From Escherichia coli (lineage in GTDB: Bacteria > Pseudomonadota > Gammaproteobacteria > Enterobacterales > Enterobacteriaceae): 40,690 bases of DNA. A program made the position numbers and the translations under genes. The stretch lies in the NCBI RefSeq assembly GCF_003334335.1, contig NZ_QOWQ01000038.1. The stretch is one strand, 5' to 3'. The stretch's first letter is position 1, and every line of letters begins with the position of its first letter. The notes below the pieces were generated by a model that saw only the letters and a program-made list of their open reading frames with translations, searched no databases and was not told the origin of the DNA. Shown here one piece after another: positions 1 through 40,690 of this stretch.

Positions 1-480
1 TGGGTTACCGATGTTACTGAATTTGCAGTCAATGGGCGCAAGCTGTATTTGTCTCCAGTAATAGATCTCTTCAACAACGAAGTTATTTCTTACAGCCTTT
101 CGGAAAGACCAGTGATGAACATGGTTGAGAATATGCTCGATCAGGCATTCAAAAAGCTTAATCCTCACGAGCATCCTGTTCTGCACTCTGACCAGGGATG
201 GCAGTATCGTATGAGAAGATATCAAAATATCCTTAAAGAACATGGTATTAAACAAAGCATGTCCAGAAAAGGCAATTGTCTGGATAATGCTGTGGTGGAG
301 TGTTTCTTTGGAACCTTAAAGTCGGAGTGTTTTTATCTTGATGAGTTCAGTAATATAAGCGAACTGAAGGATGCTGTTACGGAATATATTGAATACTACA
401 ACAGCAGAAGAATTAGCCTGAAATTAAAAGGTCTGACTCCAATTGAATATCGGAATCAGACCTATATGCCTCGTGTTTAA
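1..480 (+). CDS. insK: IS3-family transposase OrfB (InsK of IS150), C-terminal part; 5' end lies outside the window
   Basis: Frame 1 is open from nt 1 (WVTDVTEF...). DDE-type integrase core motifs are visible: [30 protein letters not shown]. Stop at 478-480. Confidence 0.85.
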
Positions 481-506
481 CTGTCCAACTTTTTGGGGTC
501 AGTACA
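1..506 (+). mobile_element. IS150 (IS3 family) insertion sequence, 3' portion truncated by the window edge, including the right terminal inverted repeat
   Basis: Transposase orfB reading frame is open from nt 1. The sequence ctgtccaactttttggggtcagtaca ends at 506, whose reverse complement TGTACTGACCCC... is a typical IS3-family TG...CA terminus. IS150 sits next to glyS in K-12 (recall). Confidence 0.8.
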
Positions 507-758: not shown

Positions 759-2828
759 TTATTGCAACAGCGAAATATCCGCAACGCGCAGGAACAGTTC
801 GCGCAGTTTCTCCAGCATGGTCAGACGGTTGATACGCAATTCTTTGTCATCAACCATGACCATCACTTTATCGAAGAAAGCATCAACCGGTTCACGCAGC
901 TCAGCCAGTTCGACCAGCGCATCCTGGTAACGACCTTCCGTAAAGTACGGCTCCAGCTTGTCACGTAGCACCACAACCTGCATCGCCAGTTTAATTTCTT
1001 CCGGCTCTTTCAGGGTAGAGGCATTCACGCGGTCGCTCAGCACTTCGTCAGATTTCGCCAGAATGTTAGATACACGTTTGTTCGCCGCCGCCAGTGCAGC
1101 AGCTGCATCCAGGGTACGGAAATGCGATACCGCTTTCATACGGGCATCGAAATCAGCCGGACGAGTCGGACGACGCGCCAGTACCGCCTGGATGGTGTCA
1201 ACGGTATAACCTTCGTCCTGATACCAGGCGCGGAAGCGACCGAGCATAAAGTCGATAACATCATCAACTACGTTGGCATTAGTCAGCTTATCGCCATACA
1301 GACGCACCGCTTCTTCGGTCAGCGTTTGCAGATCAAGGTTGAGGTTCTTCTCAACGATAATTCGCAGCACGCCAAGCGCGGCACGACGCAGCGCAAACGG
1401 GTCTTTGTCGCCTTTCGGATGCTGACCGATACCGAAGATACCCGCCAGGGTATCCATCTTGTCAGCAATCGCCAGCGCACAAGCTACTGGGTTGGACGGC
1501 AGGTCATCACCAGCAAAACGCGGCTGATACTGCTCATTCAGCGCCACCGCGACATCTTCCGCTTCGCCATCGTGACGCGCATAGTGCATCCCCATAACGC
1601 CCTGGGTGTCGGTGAACTCGAAGACCATGTTGGTCATCAGGTCGCACTTAGACAGCAGACCCGCACGGGTAGCGTGGTTAACGTCAGCGCCAATCTGTTC
1701 AGCAATCCAGCCAGCCAGCGCCTGGATGCGGTCAGTTTTGTCGCGCAGCGTCCCCAACTGTTGCTGGAACAACACGGTTTGCAGGCGCGGCAGGTTATCT
1801 TCAAGACGTTTTTTACGGTCGGTGTTGAAGAAGAACTCGGCATCCGCCAGACGCGGACGAACGACTTTCTCGTTACCGGAGATAATCTGCTGCGGATCTT
1901 TCGATTCGATGTTGGCAACGAAGATAAAGTTCGGCAGCAGTTTGCCGTCGTTCGCATACACCGGGAAGTATTTCTGGTCACCTTTCATGGTGTAAACCAG
2001 CGCTTCAGCCGGCACCGCGAGGAATTTCTCTTCGAATTTTGCGGTCAGAACGACCGGCCACTCCACCAGCGAAGCCACTTCTTCCAGCAGGCTTTCGCTT
2101 AAGTCAGCGTTACCGCCAATCTTACGCGCTGCTTCTTCGGCATCGGCTTTAATCTTCGCCTTACGTTCTTCGTAATCGGCGATGACTTTCCCACGCTCAC
2201 GCAGAATTTCCGGATACTGATCGGCGTTATCGATGGTGAATTCCGGCTCGCCCATAAAGCGGTGGCCGCGAATCACGCGATCGGACTGAATGCCCAGAAT
2301 GGTTGCCGGAATGACTTTGTCGCCCAGCAGCAGGGTCACGGTGTGCACCGGACGCACGAAGTGCACGTCGCTTGCGCCCCAACGCATCAGTTTCGGGATC
2401 GGCAGTTTCGCCAGAGAAGTCGCAACCATATTCGGCAGCAGTGCTTCGGTGCTTTCGCCCTTCACATGGGCGCGATACAGCAGCCATTCGCCTTTATCGG
2501 TAGTCAGACGCTCAGCCTGGTCAACGGTAATACCGCAACCACGCGCCCAACCTTCTGCCGCTTTGCTCGGTTTGCCTTCAGCGTCGAACGCCTGGGCAAT
2601 CGCCGGGCCGCGTTTTTCGATTTCACGATCCGGTTGCGCTTCCGCCAGGTTAGCTACTTTCAGCGCCAGACGACGCGGAGCAGCAAACCATTGAACGGTG
2701 CCGTGTGCGAGGCCAGCGTTATCCAGCTCCGCAGTAAAGTTCGCAGCAAAGGACTCAGCCAGGCTGCGCAGTGCTTTTGGTGGCAGCTCTTCAGTGCCGA
2801 TTTCCACCAGAAAAGTTTTCTCAGACAT
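759..2828 (-). CDS. glyS: Glycine--tRNA ligase beta subunit
   Basis: 689-aa ORF recognised as GlyS ([20 protein letters not shown]...), immediately downstream of glyQ with a 9-nt gap. Confidence 0.97.
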
Positions 2829-2837
2829 AGCCGCCTC

Positions 2838-3749
2838 TTACTTATCTTTGTTGCACATCGGGAAGCCGAGGGCTTCACGGGAAGCGTAGTATGCTTCTGC
2901 CACTGCTTTGGTCAGGGTGCGAATGCGCAGAATGTAGCGCTGACGCTCGGTGACGGAGATGGCTTTACGCGCATCCAGCAGGTTGAAGCTGTGGGCGGCT
3001 TTCAGAATACGCTCGTAGGCTGGCAGCGGCAGCGGATTTTCCAGCGCCAGCAGCTGCTGCGCTTCTTTCTCGTACTGCTCGAAGCAGGTGAACAGGAAGT
3101 CCACATCCGCGTATTCGAAGTTGTAAGTGGACTGCTCCACTTCGTTCTGATGGAACACGTCGCCGTAGGTGGTTTTACCCAGCGGGCCGTCGCTCCAGAC
3201 CAGGTCGTAAACGCTGTCTACGCCCTGAATGTACATGGCCAGACGTTCCAGACCGTAGGTGATCTCGCCGGTAACCGGTTTACACTCCAGACCACCAACC
3301 TGCTGGAAGTAAGTGAACTGCGTCACTTCCATGCCGTTCAGCCACACTTCCCAGCCCAGTCCCCAGGCACCCAGCGTCGGGTTTTCCCAGTTATCTTCCA
3401 CGAAACGGATGTCGTGAATAGTCGGGTCCATGCCCAGCTCTTTCAGAGAACCGAGGTACAGCTCCTGAATATTGTCCGGCGATGGCTTAATGACCACCTG
3501 GAACTGATAGTAGTGCTGTAAACGGTTGGGGTTTTCGCCGTAGCGACCATCGGTCGGGCGACGAGAAGGCTGAACATAAGCAGCCGCCATCGGTTCTGGC
3601 CCCAGCGCGCGCAGACAGGTCATTGGGTGAGAGGTTCCCGCGCCGACTTCCATGTCCAATGGTTGAACAATGGTGCAGCCCTGGCGAGCCCAGTAATCCT
3701 GTAAGGTCAGGATCAAGCCCTGGAAGGTCCTGGTATCAAACTTTTGCAT
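2838..3749 (-). CDS. glyQ: Glycine--tRNA ligase alpha subunit
   Basis: 303-aa ORF recognised as GlyQ ([25 protein letters not shown]...). Confidence 0.97.
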
Positions 3750-3843
3750 ATTATTTCGTGCTGGATACGTGTGGATTTAAAGGAAGGGATCAGTATACCC
3801 GCTGGATGGAAGATATACAGTACGAAACGGGAAAAAGCAGGGC

Positions 3844-15927: not shown

Positions 15928-17958
15928 ATGAAACTCGCCGCCTGTTTTCTGACACTCCTTCCTGGCTTCGCCGTTGCCGCCAGCTGGACTTCTCCGGGGT
16001 TTCCCGCCTTTAGCGAACAGGGGACAGGAACATTTGTCAGCCACGCGCAGTTGCCCAAAGGTACGCGTCCACTAACGCTAAATTTTGACCAACAGTGCTG
16101 GCAGCCTGCGGATGCGATAAAACTCAATCAGATGCTTTCCCTGCAACCTTGTAGCAACACGCCGCCTCAATGGCGATTGTTCAGGGACGGCGAATATACG
16201 CTGCAAATAGACACCCGCTCCGGTACGCCAACATTGATGATTTCCATCCAGAACGCCGCCGAACCGGTAGCAAGCCTGGTCCGTGAATGCCCGAAATGGG
16301 ATGGATTACCGCTCACAGTGGATGTCAGCGCCACTTTCCCGGAAGGAGCCGCCGTACGGGATTATTACAGCCAGCAAATTGCGATAGTGAAGAACGGTCA
16401 AATAATGTTACAACCCGCTGCCACCAGCAACGGTTTACTCCTGCTGGAACGGGCAGAAACTGACACATCCGCCCCTTTCGACTGGCATAACGCCACGGTT
16501 TACTTTGTGCTGACAGATCGTTTCGAAAACGGCGATCCCAGTAATGACCAGAGTTACGGACGTCATAAAGACGGTATGGCGGAAATTGGCACTTTTCACG
16601 GCGGCGATTTACGCGGCCTGACCAACAAACTGGATTACCTCCAGCAGTTGGGCGTTAATGCTTTATGGATAAGCGCCCCATTTGAGCAAATTCACGGCTG
16701 GGTCGGCGGCGGTACAAAAGGCGATTTCCCGCATTATGCCTACCACGGTTATTACACACAGGACTGGACGAATCTTGATGCCAATATGGGCAACGAAGCC
16801 GATCTACGGACGCTGGTTGATAGCGCACATCAGCGCGGTATTCGTATTCTCTTTGATGTCGTGATGAACCACACCGGCTATGCCACGCTGGCGGATATGC
16901 AGGAGTATCAGTTTGGCGCGTTATATCTTTCTGGTGACGAAGTGAAAAAATCGCTGGGTGAACGCTGGAGCGACTGGAAACCTGCCGCCGGGCAAACCTG
17001 GCATAGCTTTAACGATTACATTAATTTCAGCGACAAAACAGGCTGGGATAAATGGTGGGGAAAAAACTGGATCAGAACGGATATCGGCGATTACGACAAT
17101 CCTGGATTCGACGATCTCACTATGTCGCTAGCCTTTTTGCCGGATATCAAAACCGAATCAACTACCGCTTCTGGTCTGCCGGTGTTCTATAAAAACAAAA
17201 TGGATACCCACGCCAAAGCCATTGACGGCTATACGCCGCGCGATTACTTAACCCACTGGTTAAGTCAGTGGGTCCGCGACTATGGGATTGATGGTTTTCG
17301 GGTCGATACCGCCAAACATGTTGAGTTGCCCGCCTGGCAGCAACTGAAAACCGAAGCCAGCGCCGCGCTTCGCGAATGGAAAAAAGCTAACCCCGACAAA
17401 GCATTAGATGACAAACCTTTCTGGATGACCGGTGAAGCCTGGGGCCACGGCGTGATGCAAAGTGACTACTATCGCCACGGCTTCGATGCGATGATCAATT
17501 TCGATTATCAGGAGCAGGCGGCGAAAGCAGTCGACTGTCTGGCGCAGATGGATACGACCTGGCAGCAAATGGCGGAGAAATTGCAGGGTTTCAACGTGTT
17601 GAGCTACCTCTCGTCGCATGATACCCGCCTGTTCCGTGAAGGGGGCGACAAAGCAGCAGAGTTATTACTATTAGCGCCAGGCGCGGTACAAATCTTTTAT
17701 GGTGATGAATCCTCGCGTCCGTTCGGTCCTACAGGTTCTGATCCGCTGCAAGGTACACGTTCGGATATGAACTGGCAGGATGTTAGCGGTAAATCTGCCG
17801 CCAGCGTCGCGCACTGGCAGAAAATCAGCCAGTTCCGCGCCCGCCATCCCGCAATTGGCGCGGGCAAACAAACGACACTTTTGCTGAAGCAGGGCTACGG
17901 CTTTGTTCGTGAGCATGGCGACGATAAAGTGCTGGTCGTCTGGGCAGGGCAACAGTAA
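15928..17958 (+). CDS. malS: Periplasmic alpha-amylase
   Basis: 676 aa with signal peptide. GH13 motifs present (GFRVDTAKH, FDVVMNHTG). Confidence 0.95.
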   Translation: MKLAACFLTLLPGFAVAASWTSPGFPAFSEQGTGTFVSHAQLPKGTRPLTLNFDQQCWQPADAIKLNQMLSLQPCSNTPPQWRLFRDGEYTLQIDTRSGTPTLMISIQNAAEPVASLVRECPKWDGLPLTVDVSATFPEGAAVRDYYSQQIAIVKNGQIMLQPAATSNGLLLLERAETDTSAPFDWHNATVYFVLTDRFENGDPSNDQSYGRHKDGMAEIGTFHGGDLRGLTNKLDYLQQLGVNALWISAPFEQIHGWVGGGTKGDFPHYAYHGYYTQDWTNLDANMGNEADLRTLVDSAHQRGIRILFDVVMNHTGYATLADMQEYQFGALYLSGDEVKKSLGERWSDWKPAAGQTWHSFNDYINFSDKTGWDKWWGKNWIRTDIGDYDNPGFDDLTMSLAFLPDIKTESTTASGLPVFYKNKMDTHAKAIDGYTPRDYLTHWLSQWVRDYGIDGFRVDTAKHVELPAWQQLKTEASAALREWKKANPDKALDDKPFWMTGEAWGHGVMQSDYYRHGFDAMINFDYQEQAAKAVDCLAQMDTTWQQMAEKLQGFNVLSYLSSHDTRLFREGGDKAAELLLLAPGAVQIFYGDESSRPFGPTGSDPLQGTRSDMNWQDVSGKSAASVAHWQKISQFRARHPAIGAGKQTTLLLKQGYGFVREHGDDKVLVVWAGQQ

Positions 17959-17964
17959 CTTTTC

Positions 17965-17997
17965 CGGCTTCCCGTTCGTCAGTACCTCGGGAAGCCG
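17965..17997 (+). terminator. Hairpin downstream of malS (no clear U-tract)
   Basis: 10-bp perfect stem cggcttcccg / cgggaagccg with a 13-nt loop, 7 nt after the malS stop. Confidence 0.3.
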
Positions 17998-18135
17998 CCA
18001 ACCAGGATAAAATGTCAGCCCTAATCAGCGTTGCAGGATAAAGCACCGCTCACTCTTCAACAGACCGATTTGCACCCCAGCAAATGTAGCGTTATTGTTA
18101 CCTTCCTTGCTACAGAGTTCGACAGATATCCCGCT

Positions 18136-19389
18136 ATGACATTCTCCCTTTTTGGTGACAAATTTACCCGCCACTCCGGCATTACGCTGTTGATGGAAGA
18201 TCTGAACGACGGTTTACGCACGCCTGGCGCGATTATGCTCGGCGGCGGTAATCCGGCGCAGATCCCGGAAATGCAGGACTACTTCCAGACGCTACTGACC
18301 GACATGCTGGAAAGTGGCAAAGCGACTGATGCACTGTGTAACTACGACGGTCCACAGGGGAAAACGGAGCTACTCACACTGCTTGCCGGAATGCTGCGCG
18401 AGAAGTTGGGTTGGGATATCGAACCACAGAATATTGCACTAACAAACGGCAGCCAGAGCGCGTTTTTCTACTTATTTAACCTGTTTGCCGGACGCCGTGC
18501 CGATGGTCGGGTCAAAAAAGTGCTGTTCCCGCTTGCACCGGAATACATTGGCTATGCTGACGCCGGACTGGAAGAAGATCTGTTTGTCTCTGCGCGTCCG
18601 AATATTGAACTGCTGCCGGAAGGCCAGTTTAAATACCACGTCGATTTTGAGCATCTGCATATTGGCGAAGAAACCGGGATGATTTGCGTCTCCCGGCCGA
18701 CGAATCCAACAGGCAATGTGATTACTGACGAAGAGTTGCTGAAGCTTGACGCGCTGGCGAATCAACACGGCATTCCGCTGGTGATTGATAACGCTTATGG
18801 CGTCCCGTTCCCGGGTATCATCTTCAGTGAAGCGCGCCCGCTATGGAATCCGAATATCGTGCTGTGCATGAGTCTTTCCAAGCTGGGTCTACCTGGCTCC
18901 CGCTGCGGCATTATCATCGCCAATGAAAAAATCATCACCGCCATCACCAATATGAACGGCATTATCAGCCTGGCACCTGGCGGTATTGGTCCGGCGATGA
19001 TGTGTGAAATGATTAAGCGTAACGATCTGCTGCGCCTGTCTGAAACAGTCATCAAACCGTTTTACTACCAGCGTGTTCAGGAAACTATCGCCATCATTCG
19101 CCGCTATTTACCGGAAAATCGCTGCCTGATTCATAAACCGGAAGGAGCCATTTTCCTCTGGCTATGGTTTAAGGATTTGCCCATTACGACCGAGCAGCTC
19201 TATCAGCGCCTGAAAGCACGCGGCGTGCTGATGGTGCCGGGGCACAACTTCTTCCCAGGGCTGGATAAACCGTGGCCGCATACGCATCAATGTATGCGCA
19301 TGAACTACGTACCAGAGCCGGAGAAAATTGAGGCGGGGGTGAAGATTCTGGCGGAAGAGATAGAAAGAGCCTGGGCTGAAAGTCACTAA
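18136..19389 (+). CDS. avtA: Valine--pyruvate aminotransferase
   Basis: ORF-track frame 18031..19389. Start placed at ATG 18136 (MTFSLFGDKFTRHSGITLLMEDL...), giving 417 aa. Confidence 0.93.
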   Translation: MTFSLFGDKFTRHSGITLLMEDLNDGLRTPGAIMLGGGNPAQIPEMQDYFQTLLTDMLESGKATDALCNYDGPQGKTELLTLLAGMLREKLGWDIEPQNIALTNGSQSAFFYLFNLFAGRRADGRVKKVLFPLAPEYIGYADAGLEEDLFVSARPNIELLPEGQFKYHVDFEHLHIGEETGMICVSRPTNPTGNVITDEELLKLDALANQHGIPLVIDNAYGVPFPGIIFSEARPLWNPNIVLCMSLSKLGLPGSRCGIIIANEKIITAITNMNGIISLAPGGIGPAMMCEMIKRNDLLRLSETVIKPFYYQRVQETIAIIRRYLPENRCLIHKPEGAIFLWLWFKDLPITTEQLYQRLKARGVLMVPGHNFFPGLDKPWPHTHQCMRMNYVPEPEKIEAGVKILAEEIERAWAESH

Positions 19390-19395
19390 AAATTG

Positions 19396-19492
19396 CCTGA
19401 TGCGCTACGCTTATCAGGCCTACATGATTTCTGCAATATATTGAATTTGGAAGAATTTGTAGGCCGGATAAGGCGTTTACGCCGCATCTGGC
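19396..19492. repeat. BIME: two inverted REP elements
   Basis: gcctgatgcgctacgcttatcaggcctac (19396-19424) and gtaggccggataaggcgtttacgccgcatctggc (19459-19492). Confidence 0.65.
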
Positions 19493-36258: not shown

Positions 36259-36447
36259 AACACACTCCTGAAAGTGTAAAAAAGGGCGGGCAGCTTACTG
36301 AGGATTTTCATTCGAAAATATGATCAGTATTATTGATTATCAAAATTAATCTAATAAAAAGCACATTGTATTCATTAAACAATGTGCTTTTTTTAAATTC
36401 ATAAGAATTTTGTATTAATTTATTTTAAAACTTAATTAATCATTTCC

Positions 36448-38292
36448 TTATTTTTCCGGAAATAATAATGCGTCGCGCAATAAATGATCATTTCCACGAC
36501 GACGCGTAAAGCCAATGCGGTCAAAATATTCCAGAATCTGAATTGCCAGCTTTCGGCCTACGCCTAAGCGATCGCGGAAATCCGCCGCGCAGGTTGAACC
36601 ACACTCCTGATCGAGATCGCGGATCATATTGGCAAACTCGACAATCCGATCGTTACGGTAATAACGATCTTTAACGATCGCGGTAATTATTCCTTGCTGC
36701 GCCGCCTGGCGTAGAGTCAGGCGCATTGCCTGCTCGTCGGTTCCCGTCTCTTTTGCCAGGTCACGCACCCACCACGGTTCGTCACCAAACAGTGGCTCTG
36801 CTTTTTGCCAGATGGCCTGCTGCTCTTCGCTGAAGCCCGCTTTGTGATCTGGCAGATGCAGCCAGCCGTGATGGCTGTGGATGTCGCCGCTTTCGCGCAT
36901 CTTTTCAATCAGCAACAGTACCAGCGCTTCATCTTCCATTGGCAACGCCATACGTCGCAGACGTTCGCGCCCAGGGCCAGGTTCATCGCGATGTTGCTCA
37001 TGATAAGTCGCTAATGTGTCGAGAATTTTCCGCTGCCAGCGGGCGGCAACCGGCGCATTCAACAAGCTATAACCAGCCTGAATATAACCAGGCTGTTGCA
37101 GCAATTCGCGCATCCCTTCGCCGTTGAGCTGGCGCGCCCAGGCGAAATCCGCAAGGTTAACCGCGCCGCGTTCCAGATGAACAGATAACGCATCGGCATC
37201 GCTCTGCGCCCGTGCAAGAGACGCCAGCCATTGCAGATATTCCGGCTTACGTTTACCGCGACGCGGCGGGTTAAGCATCACGACGCGCGCTCCGGCCAGC
37301 GTGTTGCGGGCAGAGATATCGCGCAATACCAGGCGGTCGTTATCTGCCAGCCATAACGGGGTGTCGAAGACCAGTTCAGCAAGGTTATCTTCCAGCAGTG
37401 AAACGCGTCCCGTGACGTGGCTGGCGGCGTGGTGAATATGCAGCGGCTGCCACTGGGTCAGCGGTGTATGGGTTTGAAGCTCGACAATCACCCGTGTGAA
37501 CGGCTCTGGCGGCACATCGGCAAGCAGCCAGTCGCCACGGTTAATCTGCTCTTTTTCCGCATCACCCGCGATGTTAAGCGCGATACGCTGCCCGGCATTG
37601 GCGGTTTCTGTTGGCTGGTTTTGCGCATGCAGCGCACGTACACGCATCGGTTTATTTACACCAGTCAGCCAGAGTGAATCGCCTACCTTCACTTCCCCGC
37701 TTAACGCCGTACCGGTGACGACCAGCCCGGCACCTTTTACGGTAAATGCGCGGTCAATCGCGAGGCGGAAACTATGTTGGCTGGCGTGCTCGCGTTCCGG
37801 CAACTGAAGCAGATGCTCGCGCAGGGCATCCATTCCCCGACCTTCGGTTGCTGCGGTGATAAACAGTTTTGCCTCAGCAAAACCGTATTCCCGCAGAACC
37901 TCCTTTACCTGGCGTTCAACCTCATCAACACGCGCTTCGTCCACGCGATCGGCTTTGGTCAGCGCCACTGTCAGCATCGGGTTACCGGTCAGCTGCAAAA
38001 TCGCCAGATGCTCACGGGTCTGTGCCATCACGCCGTCATCGCACGCCACCACCAACAGCGCGTGATCGATACCACCAACGCCCGCCAGCATGTTGGAAAG
38101 AAACTTTTCATGACCGGGAACGTCGATAAAACCAGGCACGCGACCATCCGGCTGCGGCCAGTAGGCATAGCCGAGATCGATGGTCATGCCGCGCTTTTTT
38201 TCTTCCGGCAGACGGTCAGCATTTACGCCAGTAATCGCCTGCAATAAGGTTGTTTTGCCGTGGTCAACGTGTCCGGCAGTCGCAATAATCAT
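36448..38292 (-). CDS. selB: Selenocysteine-specific translation elongation factor
   Basis: 614 aa, N-terminal GTPase ([22 protein letters not shown]) with a long C-terminal extension. Confidence 0.95.
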
Positions 38293-39680
38293 TTCAACAA
38301 CATCTCCAAAAACCGTTGCTCATCTTCAAGGCAGCGTAAATCCAGCCACAATCGTCCGTCATAAATACGACCAATCACCGGCACTGGCAATTCACGCCAG
38401 CGGGCGGCTAATGACTCAAGGTGGCTACCGCGTCCATCATGGGGTGTAAACGTTAATGCCGCGCTCGGCAGGCGATCAACCGGCAGCGAACCACTGCCAA
38501 TCTGCGAAAGACATGGCATAACCTGTACCGCAAACTCCGCGCCGTAATGTGCGGCAAGGGGGGCCTGTAAACGTTGTGCCTGGATTTGAATGACCTCTGC
38601 GCTGCGGGTAAGCAGGCGCAGGGTCGGTAATTTTTCACTCAGAGCTTCAGGGTGTAAATAAAGACGCAACGTGGCTTCCAGCGCCGCGAGGGTCATTTTA
38701 TCCGCGCGTAATGCACGCTTCAGCGGGTGGCTTTGCAGGCGGGCGATCATCTCTTTTTTACCAACAATAATTCCTGCCTGCGGCCCGCCTAACAACTTGT
38801 CGCCGGAGAAACTCACCAGACTGACGCCCGCCGCAATCAACTCCTGCGGCATTGGCTCTTTCGGCAAACCGTACTGGCTAAGATCGACCAGCGAGCCACT
38901 GCCTAAATCAGTCACTACGGGAACATCCAGCTCTTTGCCGAGCGCCACCAGTTCCGCTTCATCTATCGCTTTGGTGAACCCCTGAATGCTGTAGTTACTG
39001 GTATGTACTTTCATCAACAGTGCGGTATTTTCATTCACCGCCTGACGATAATCATTCGCGTGCGTGCGGTTGGTGGTCCCTACTTCGTGTAGGGTGCAGC
39101 CTGCCTGACGCATAACATCGGGAATACGAAACGCGCCGCCAATCTCCACCAGTTCGCCGCGAGATACCACCACCTCTTTTCCGCTGGCAGTGGCCGCCAA
39201 CATCAATAACACCGCCGCCGCATTGTTATTGACGATACAGGCATCTTCCGCCCCCGTAATACGGCACAGCAGCTGCGCCAGCGCCCGATCGCGATGTCCG
39301 CGTCCGGCGTCGTCCAGATCATACTCGAGGGTCACTGGCGAACGCATAGCCTGCGCAACGGCTTCCACCGCGGCTTCCGCCTGTAAAGCTCGCCCAAGGT
39401 TGGTATGCAGCACGGTTCCCGTCAGGTTGATCACCGGACGCAGCGCGCTCTGCGCTTCTTTCGTCAACCGGGCATCGACTTCTTGCGCCCAGTTTTCACA
39501 CCACGCAGGCAGCGTCTGGCTGCCACGAATCACTTCTCGCGCTTCGTCGAGCATCTGACGCAACAATTCCACCACGCGGGTGTGACCATAAGTATCACGC
39601 AAAGAAAGGAAGGAGCTATCGCGCAATAAGCGATCAATAGCCGGAAGTTGACTATAGAGGGAACGCGTTTCGGTTGTCAT
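38289..39680 (-). CDS. selA: L-seryl-tRNA(Sec) selenium transferase (selenocysteine synthase)
   Basis: 463 aa, recognised as SelA. Its stop overlaps the selB start (ATGA). Confidence 0.95.
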
Positions 39681-39777
39681 AGGAAACCTGGCTGATCAAG
39701 GCCCTCTCACACGGAGAAGGGCGTTTAACATAACCACGGATTGTAACGTGAGATGGGTCAGGAGGACATATCGCGCA

Positions 39778-40386
39778 TCAAGCCTTTGGCGGTTCGGTGC
39801 GAGCAAAACTTTCGCGGCTAAACAGGTTTTCGACCAGTTTGACTAAGTGTGGGCGGTCGACACACCAACCTGGCGCAACGCGGCGGAAATTGAGATATCC
39901 GACGGCACAGGCAATGGCGATAGTCGCCAGATTGACCGTATCGGTTTTGAGTGTGCCATCGACCAGATATCCTTCCAGCACATCCAGACTGCGGTTGATT
40001 TTCTCCCGCTGGCGTAACAATTCATCTTCAGACTGCTGCGCCGCTGGACGCGCCTGTTCACGCACCGATACCAGCCCGGCATCCATAATGCCATCCGCCA
40101 GTGCCTCAATTTTGCGCACCCGCAACGACTCCAGCGGATCGCGCGGCAACATCGCCGGAGCGACATTCATTAATTCAATATATTCAGCGATGATCGGCGA
40201 ATCAAACCAGCATTCGCCCTCTTCGGTCACCAGCACCGGCACTTTTCCTAACGGGTTAAATTGCGCCACGCCGTTGTCCGCGTTATAGGGCAGTTCATTA
40301 ATAAATTCGAAAGTTATGCCCTTTTCTAACAACAGAATAGAAAGTTTGCGTACAAACGGGCTGGTGTAGCTACCGACGAGTTTCAT
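39778..40386 (-). CDS. yibF: Glutathione S-transferase-like protein
   Basis: 202 aa with GST N-terminal thioredoxin-like and C-terminal helical domains. Confidence 0.88.
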
Positions 40387-40613
40387 GCCGAGTCCTTTGT
40401 GCGAGGAAAAATATCAGTATGGCCTGGTGATGGGAAAAAGGGCAGAAAATGTTGATGGTTTGTTACTTCCAAATAAATCACATATTTATCATGGTGATAT
40501 AAATATTTTCCTAATTATTTCACTCTGATGGATATCTCACTTCAGGCTTTCTTATAAATCTGTAGGGTTTCGCCTGTCAGCAGACAAATAACCCGATAAA
40601 ACAAGGATGAGAA

Positions 40614-40690
40614 ATGAGCGGAAAACCGGCGGCGCGTCAGGGTGACATGACGCAGTATGGCGGTAGCATTGTTCAGGGTTCAGCCGGGGT
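40614..40690 (+). CDS. rhsA: Rhs-family protein (RhsA), first 25 codons only; continues beyond the window
   Basis: ATG at 40614 gives MSGKPAARQGDMTQYGGSIVQGSAG, matching the Rhs N-terminus by recall and containing a literal P-A-A-R motif. Confidence 0.7.
   Translation, partial: MSGKPAARQGDMTQYGGSIVQGSAG

Follow-up and report, generated by a model that had tools for sequence, protein, structure and literature searches.

The rhsA locus is one of the founding Rhs loci ("rearrangement hot spot"), known from the 1980s onwards in E. coli K-12. Its character as a toxin/immunity locus and its polymorphism between strains are established. The closest homologue of RhsA with a solved structure is Tse5 (PA2684, PDB 8CP6; E = 6.9e-128), an Rhs effector of the H1-T6SS of P. 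aeruginosa. Tse5 is processed, with cleavage at K47/P48, to a 5-kDa N-terminal fragment, a shell and a toxin; its cryo-EM map leaves residues 1-29 unresolved and shows residues 30-47 gripped by the DUF6531 plug (PMC10684867). The N-terminal fragment is described as a PAAR-like domain needed for secretion via the VgrG1c (VgrG4) spike of the T6SS (PMC10684867); it does not carry the Pro-Ala-Ala-Arg signature (PMC9637101). Two further groups of proteins invite comparison. The prePAAR/TMD Rhs effectors (P. protegens RhsA, PDB 7Q97, and Rhs proteins of Enterobacter, Serratia and Salmonella) share with E. coli RhsA the cage, the plug and a His-Pro cleavage dipeptide; in these effectors the ~300 residues at the N-terminus include a prePAAR motif, transmembrane helices and a full PAAR domain, and there is an Eag chaperone. 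Canonical PAAR and PAAR-Rhs proteins (PF05488; VCA0105, PDB 4JIV; c1882, PDB 4JIW) contain three repeats, to one of which RhsA residues 2-29 are homologous.

The DNA analysed here, "the window", is a stretch of 40,690 nucleotides from an E. coli contig, and its right-hand end can be set against these systems. The window ends at the start of rhsA, at the left end of the classical RhsA element (Table 1). We give a probability of roughly 90% to the overall reading that this is the left end of the RhsA element, that rhsA encodes, by homology, a polymorphic contact-dependent toxin, and that this toxin is probably undeliverable in K-12-like strains. The locus is already known, a textbook Rhs locus and not a discovery; as such the finding matters little. 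Its value is for annotation, in that the accessory boundary is fixed at 40423/40424 inside the yibF-rhsA spacer and yibF is shown to have been parted from yibIH.

Table 1. Features at the two ends of the window (positions are those of the window).
Feature	Position	Strand	Basis or remark
IS150 end	1-506		left edge of window
sok antitoxin RNA match RF01794	446-585	minus	Rfam; adjoins IS150 end
yibF (glutathione S-transferase-like protein)	39778-40386	minus	202-codon ORF; annotated yibF in every matching genome
native DNA upstream of yibF, 37 bp	40387-40423	.	48.6% GC; common to genomes without the Rhs element
RhsA element left end, 190-bp leader of rhsA	40424-40613	+	34.7% GC; junction mapping, paralogue alignment
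conserved motif TAAATATTTTCCTAA	40500-40514	+	rhsA/rhsC/rhsB upstream alignment
rhsA stub, 77 nt = 25 codons + 2 bases; gene exits window	40614-40690	+	

The identity of the locus follows from direct comparison with sequenced genomes. Over its full length the window follows K-12 MG1655 3721570-3762259 colinearly; 15 substitutions and not a single gap separate the two. For its right-hand 25 kb no complete RefSeq genome is identical, and the closest single-piece matches are an estimated ~5 bases off (bit score 46,139, against ~46,167 for a perfect match), so that the source is a K-12-like strain of phylogroup A from outside that collection. Ten complete E. coli genomes match the final 991 bp at 100% identity and have them annotated as yibF plus rhsA or RHS element core protein, so the match is not due to chance. 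The yibF-rhsA spacer is exactly 227 bp long (40387-40613). The rhsA start codon (ATG, 40614-40616) has AAGGA at 40603-40607, seven bases upstream, and an in-frame TGA (40608-40610) directly before it, so that the start of the open reading frame cannot lie further upstream. Translation of the stub gives MSGKPAARQGDMTQYGGSIVQGSAG, which equals residues 1-25 of MG1655 RhsA and of the Rhs protein of strain ECCHD184 at 100% identity. MG1655 rhsA (b3593) occupies the same site, with yibF on its left and the same 227-bp spacer, and has the identical 25-residue N-terminus. The sequence-only reading, made from the letters of the window, had taken the stub for an Rhs N-terminus that literally contains PAAR, and the identity of MSGKPAARQGDMTQYGGSIVQGSAG to RhsA 1-25 bears this out; the positions and lengths it gave (40387-40690, a spacer of 227 bp, the last 77 nt for the stub) are exact. 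Its description of the spacer as AT-rich stands (37.0% GC; the window as a whole has 50.8% and the stub 61%), yet needs two qualifications: the spacer is not the window's extreme, since 4.3% of the sequence's 227-bp windows equal or exceed it in AT content, and it is a composite of 37 bp of native DNA and 190 bp of the element. The lowest-GC 227-bp stretch of the window, ~36304-36530 with 25% GC, is the spacer between yiaY and selB.

The composite nature of the spacer emerges from the presence and absence of the element among 5,426 complete E. coli genomes. All 5,426 have yibF, a core gene that forms the left flank of the Rhs element and stands outside it. The yibF-rhs junction is carried by 3,748 of them, and in ~31% homology stops at window position 40423 (query base 646). 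In genomes free of the Rhs element (ST95-32, EFF60) yibI, yibH and yibF are contiguous, head to tail and co-directional, with 70 bp between yibH and yibF, and the sole match to the spacer is 37 bp long. Base-by-base alignment with the empty site of ST95-32 puts the left junction at 40423/40424. The right junction in MG1655 adjoins the yibH stop codon, where ~32 bp of the original spacer have been replaced, and the inserted block, calculated from the junction coordinates, amounts to ~8.25 kb in MG1655. The accessory element thus begins inside the yibF-rhsA spacer and sits in what was the 70-bp yibH-yibF spacer. It behaves as an accessory island, with a present/absent polymorphism, a sharp junction and a fixed chromosomal site (yibF-yibH), and its composition is contrasted, the core being GC-rich and the leader and tip AT-rich: in the window, 34.7% GC in the leader and 61% in the stub; in MG1655, 61.7% in the core, 40.3% in the tip and 33.7% in yibA. 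The insertion cut yibF off from yibIH. In rhsA-positive strains yibF lies ~8 kb away from yibIH. With that separation, yibF must be transcribed from within or beside the AT-rich end of the element.

The window holds 25 codons of rhsA only, and the parts of the gene past 40690 are deduced from other strains. MG1655 RhsA has 1377 residues. The NCBIfam equivalog model NF041261 (RHS_core) aligns from residue 1 of full-length homologues with 2645-2647 bits (cutoff 2000), and the 25 residues encoded in the window, identical to RhsA, belong to the N-terminal end of that core. In a Pfam scan of a full-length homologue, DUF6531 covers residues 46-123, followed by 10 RHS repeats at E <= 0.001 and an RHS domain at 1143-1179, and the MG1655-type tip is Ntox34 (E = 3.6e-43). 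The cage, the Rhs-associated core (DPxGL aspartyl protease) and a variable tip are found at the same site in MG1655, BHUCD01 and ECCHD184. In MG1655 rhsA is followed by the immunity gene yibA, which encodes a HEAT-repeat protein matching NF007244; beyond yibA come orphan tip fragments with immunity genes of their own (yibJ/yibG plus further remnants). A passage in PMC3150448, citing Vlazny & Hill 1995, relates that the RhsA C-terminus blocks recovery from stationary phase and that yibA neutralises it. The MG1655 segment from leader through rhsA to yibA is covered to at least 80% by a single place in 2,550 of the 5,426 genomes. Other genomes share the first ~3.95 kb and then diverge, or carry an rhsB-type tip, the K-12 tip and yibA having been shifted downstream of it. 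This variation of the tip above a conserved core is the known pattern of C-terminal displacement. The general account of Rhs proteins in the sequence-only reading, a conserved core with a variable toxin tip and an immunity gene, is therefore true of the MG1655 copy (Ntox34, yibA), and the comparison of tips across strains that it proposed comes out with the core conserved and the tip varying among E. coli genomes.

The right edge of the window could also cut into a dead gene, with rhsA truncated, internally deleted or disrupted by an insertion sequence just past the edge, so that the stub would be a decaying relic and encode nothing functional. Damaged copies do exist among close matches. CP8-3_Sichuan, which has the top single-piece score for the right-hand 25 kb, retains the start while ~2.2 kb of its core is gone, and what is left of its rhsA is annotated as a pseudogene without the N-terminus; in ECCHD184, 100% identical over the last 991 bp, ISKpn26 lies in the toxin tip and yibA through yibH are lost; and among the 30 matches that score best against the end of the window, one is annotated as "hypothetical protein" only. 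The other 29 of those 30, however, bear the name RHS element core protein or RhsA, an intact 1377-residue rhsA followed by yibA is found in both MG1655 and BHUCD01, the 2,550 genomes just mentioned carry most of the segment in one place, and in the window itself the start codon, the ribosome-binding site and the first 25 codons are intact. A dead source gene is unlikely on this evidence. CP8-3_Sichuan (locus 1688-3769) has kept the start, the Ntox34 tip and yibA despite its internal deletion, which is an example of recombination within the Rhs core. In ECCHD184 (locus 17120-18258) the protein matches MG1655 RhsA at 1351 of 1352 residues before ISKpn26, which cuts the tip after residue 1352, replaces the tail; of yibI, a DUF3302 gene, only a remnant is left.

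The layout of full-length RhsA matches that of Tse5: an N-terminal fragment of 47 residues, a cleavage site before PVNP, the DUF6531 plug, the YD cage and an encapsulated toxin. The Tse5 shell chain begins PVNPMLGSKLLPEE, which is aligned to RhsA 48-PVNPLLGAKVLPGE. The His-Pro at which P. protegens RhsA is cleaved, H304/P305 (PMC8765631), aligns with H47-P48 of E. coli RhsA, which has only 47 residues before the cleavage site where the prePAAR/TMD effectors have their region of ~300 residues. We infer, by analogy, that E. coli RhsA is a Tse5-type effector. The two proteins nevertheless differ in several respects. RhsA keeps the PAAR signature that is missing from Tse5; Tse5 associates with the VgrG1c spike, whereas E. 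coli rhsA has no vgrG neighbour; and the toxin of Tse5 is a pore-former, that of RhsA an Ntox34 domain.

The PAAR tetrapeptide requires closer attention, as the stub encodes most of a single PAAR-type repeat (RhsA residues 2-29) within the 47-residue N-terminal fragment. The literal PAAR could be taken to mark a complete and functional PAAR domain, and RhsA to be a canonical PAAR-Rhs spike-tip effector like those of E. coli T6SS islands. The tetrapeptide and its context (KPAARxGD...GG.IV.GS..V.IG) do fit PAAR repeats, and in an in-silico study of EHEC the Rhs proteins listed as "with a PAAR domain" include those of the rhsA-like genes (PMC7216683). Several results run against such a domain. 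A Pfam scan of 1199 residues gives no PF05488 hit at E <= 10; on the isolated first 60 residues the model reaches only a sub-threshold match, residues 2-20 to model positions 51-69 of 70 (i-E 0.011, 16.4 bits), or 19 of 70 positions. PF05488 is absent from the precomputed annotation of all 120 close relatives, whereas P0215, which has three repeats, is positive. RhsA has 45 residues before the plug domain, against the ~90 needed for the three tandem repeats that form the cone, and one repeat is all that is found. An extension further upstream is excluded by the stop at 40608-40610, and tblastn finds no relics of repeats upstream. The complete-domain interpretation is very improbable. (The tblastn search, for PAAR repeats 1-2 with the three-repeat relatives as queries, had one upstream match, 40396-40452; we reject it as chance because it straddles the element junction and overlaps native DNA on the yibF side, and its small E-value reflects a database of 491 nt.)

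The tetrapeptide is nonetheless no coincidence. The segment containing it is homologous to a genuine repeat: when RhsA 1-47 is compared with PDB sequences, all four matches are PAAR spike-tip proteins (9RCE SalCis10, 4JIV, 4JIW and 8GRA; best E = 8.9e-4), and in every case it is the third and last repeat that RhsA residues 2-29 match. The family alignment likewise pairs the N-terminus of RhsA with repeat 3 of P0212, P0215 and P0170, relatives that have three repeats. Identity between the stub and the individual repeats of P0170 is 58-74%. RhsA thus differs from canonical PAAR proteins in having one repeat and not three, in a match below Pfam significance, and in a Tyr in place of His/Cys: RhsA and the repeats of P0170 have Tyr where P0212 and P0215 have His in repeats 1-2 and Cys in repeat 3. 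That position is the His/Cys zinc-ligand position of canonical PAAR repeats. A canonical PAAR domain has a three-fold cone, which a single repeat cannot build. Given the single repeat and the Tyr at the zinc-ligand position, docking to VgrG is not established for RhsA. "PAAR" in such proteins means a single repeat, and they should not be filed automatically as PAAR-domain spike tips.

Relatives of RhsA show both arrangements. The first 125 residues were used as query in an exhaustive search of 1.8 billion representatives, which was needed to reach the three-repeat relatives; a word-indexed protein search with the same residues returned enterobacterial fragments only and did not reach Tse5. Among the best 150 matches are 23 proteins of at least 800 residues. 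In 21 of these the match begins within the first few residues; in the other two (P0212 and P0215), as in several shorter matches such as P0170, it begins at about residue 60. An alignment of 16 diverged relatives has 13 with the short, one-repeat N-terminus and three (P0212, P0215, P0170) with three repeats, in which two additional upstream PAAR repeats are fused to the same linker (GVACSVCPGG), PVNP motif and plug. The canonical three-repeat domain, with the linker and plug of RhsA, is thereby present within RhsA's own Rhs subfamily. As for genomic context, the three-repeat, PF05488-positive P0215 belongs to a T6SS cluster, in which it immediately follows vgrG; short-form P0190 and its neighbour (which starts MSGKPAARQGD) adjoin vgrG genes; and short-form P0226 has no vgrG neighbour. 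An effector island in GCA_028069655.1 (locus 1-20989) combines three rhs genes with two vgrG genes and a DUF2169 adaptor gene; the first and second rhs genes share the one-repeat MSGKPAARQGD N-terminus of RhsA, and the third starts MGTHIFSGG and carries an Ntox8 tip. At the E. coli loci examined (MG1655, BHUCD01, ECCHD184 and CP8-3_Sichuan) no vgrG lies beside rhsA, and the literature searched yielded no instance of delivery of K-12-type RhsA by any secretion system.

This distribution bears on a quite different possibility, that RhsA acts without any T6SS, through another export route or as an intracellular module for stationary-phase viability or addiction together with YibA, the N-terminal repeat being a vestige with no docking role. 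The lack of an adjacent vgrG at the E. coli loci fits it, as does the absence of one beside the short-form relative P0226. So does the one phenotype that the literature consulted gives for this locus, an intracellular block of stationary-phase recovery relieved by yibA (PMC3150448). The evidence from the relatives is of the opposite kind. The repeat of 25 residues is strongly conserved (short and single in 13 of the 16 sampled relatives, threefold in three), which argues for function and not for decay, and other short-form relatives are linked to vgrG. Tse5, structurally the closest characterised protein, is moreover secreted by the T6SS and requires its short N-terminal piece (PMC10684867). 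On balance we regard T6SS-independent action as quite unlikely. K-12 itself keeps four intact rhs genes, which would suit such action, and to our knowledge it has no T6SS. With no adjacent vgrG at the E. coli loci and no T6SS in K-12, RhsA in a K-12-like host is probably an effector that cannot be delivered and whose gene is for the most part silent.

The reading we prefer, a Tse5-type effector, can be set out as a sequence of steps, all of them by homology or analogy. Residues 2-29, approximately what the window encodes, would be the VgrG-docking repeat, and residues 30-47 an anchor that threads into the cage. Autocleavage would take place between His47 and Pro48 (SGH/PVNPLLGAKVL). The cage of YD repeats would end in the aspartyl-protease Rhs core motif (DPLGL), and the two autocleavages together would free the contents of the cage, the payload of the K-12 allele being Ntox34, neutralised by YibA. 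In bacteria with a T6SS the N-terminal piece would dock the protein on a VgrG spike, with which it would be delivered to cells nearby; in strains like K-12 the gene would be kept along with its immunity gene and serve as a substrate for recombination.

How one repeat might serve for docking is a matter for speculation. Three Rhs molecules could contribute one repeat each to a pseudo-PAAR cone assembled non-covalently on the VgrG trimer, or one repeat could bind one face of VgrG. The short N-terminus that the classical enterobacterial Rhs proteins have in common with most of their relatives would then be a "one-third PAAR", and this, if true, would be a distinct mode of loading for T6SS Rhs effectors, and the rhs genes of E. 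coli K-12 would be fully competent cargo merely short of a machine. A three-repeat version built from RhsA-like repeats (P0170) does occur naturally in this subfamily, and short forms are linked to vgrG. For a synthetic covalent triple of RhsA 1-27, AlphaFold2 gives a model of low confidence (mean pLDDT 60.8, pTM 0.43), and a Foldseek search of this low-confidence model against the PDB returns no PAAR match and nothing at E <= 0.001. We consider the idea a long shot.

The 190-bp leader presumably contains the promoter and regulatory region of rhsA, including the ribosome-binding site AAGGA at 40603-40607. Its left part, 40424-40496, is specific to the rhsA locus, and its right part, 40497-40613 (the 117 nt nearest the ATG), is common to the rhsC locus; the rhsB locus shares little with rhsA beyond the coding start and one short motif. 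That motif, TAAATATTTTCCTAA (40500-40514), is kept upstream of both rhsA and rhsC and has one mismatch upstream of rhsB; it occurs once in the window, against 0.13 occurrences expected, and fits the wwTTCykA core of the BglJ-RcsB motif. A published FIMO genome scan predicts BglJ-RcsB sites at rhsA and rhsB (PMC3950696). We keep 40500-40514 as a candidate BglJ-RcsB activator site, a lead only, because of its conservation among paralogues and this published prediction. The RcsAB-box consensus itself is met at 40500-40513 with three mismatches, a level reached twice in the window against 2.2 expected and so not above chance. Consensus scans of 40200-40690 detect no sigma-70 promoter in the spacer; the sole promoter-like site they detect is inside the rhsA stub and the sole terminator-like site inside yibF. 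No Rfam family is found in 39600-40690 at a permissive threshold, and the only repeats in 40300-40690 are a pair of 14 nt, which is weak, and an inverted pair of 12 nt, each probably due to chance. The stub differs from MG1655 rhsA by two synonymous substitutions, at 40631 and 40643; the window's allele is that of the rhsB start and the MG1655 allele that of the rhsC start, a pattern that suggests gene conversion among rhs paralogues.

At the other end of the window a second accessory locus is present. The sequence-only reading had called the Rhs locus the only accessory-type locus touching the window, and this is wrong, as the left edge lies within IS150 (1-506) beside a sok remnant. The IS150 insertion occurs in 1,642 of the 5,426 complete E. 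coli genomes, and elsewhere homology starts at 496 or 508; shared so widely, it does not single out a lineage. The adjoining segment 446-585 is a hokA/sokA remnant beside glyS. The window also contains a match to the Rfam sRNA family ES036 (CssrF) at 19416-19458 on the minus strand, just downstream of avtA, with 46.1 bits against a gathering score of 37.6.
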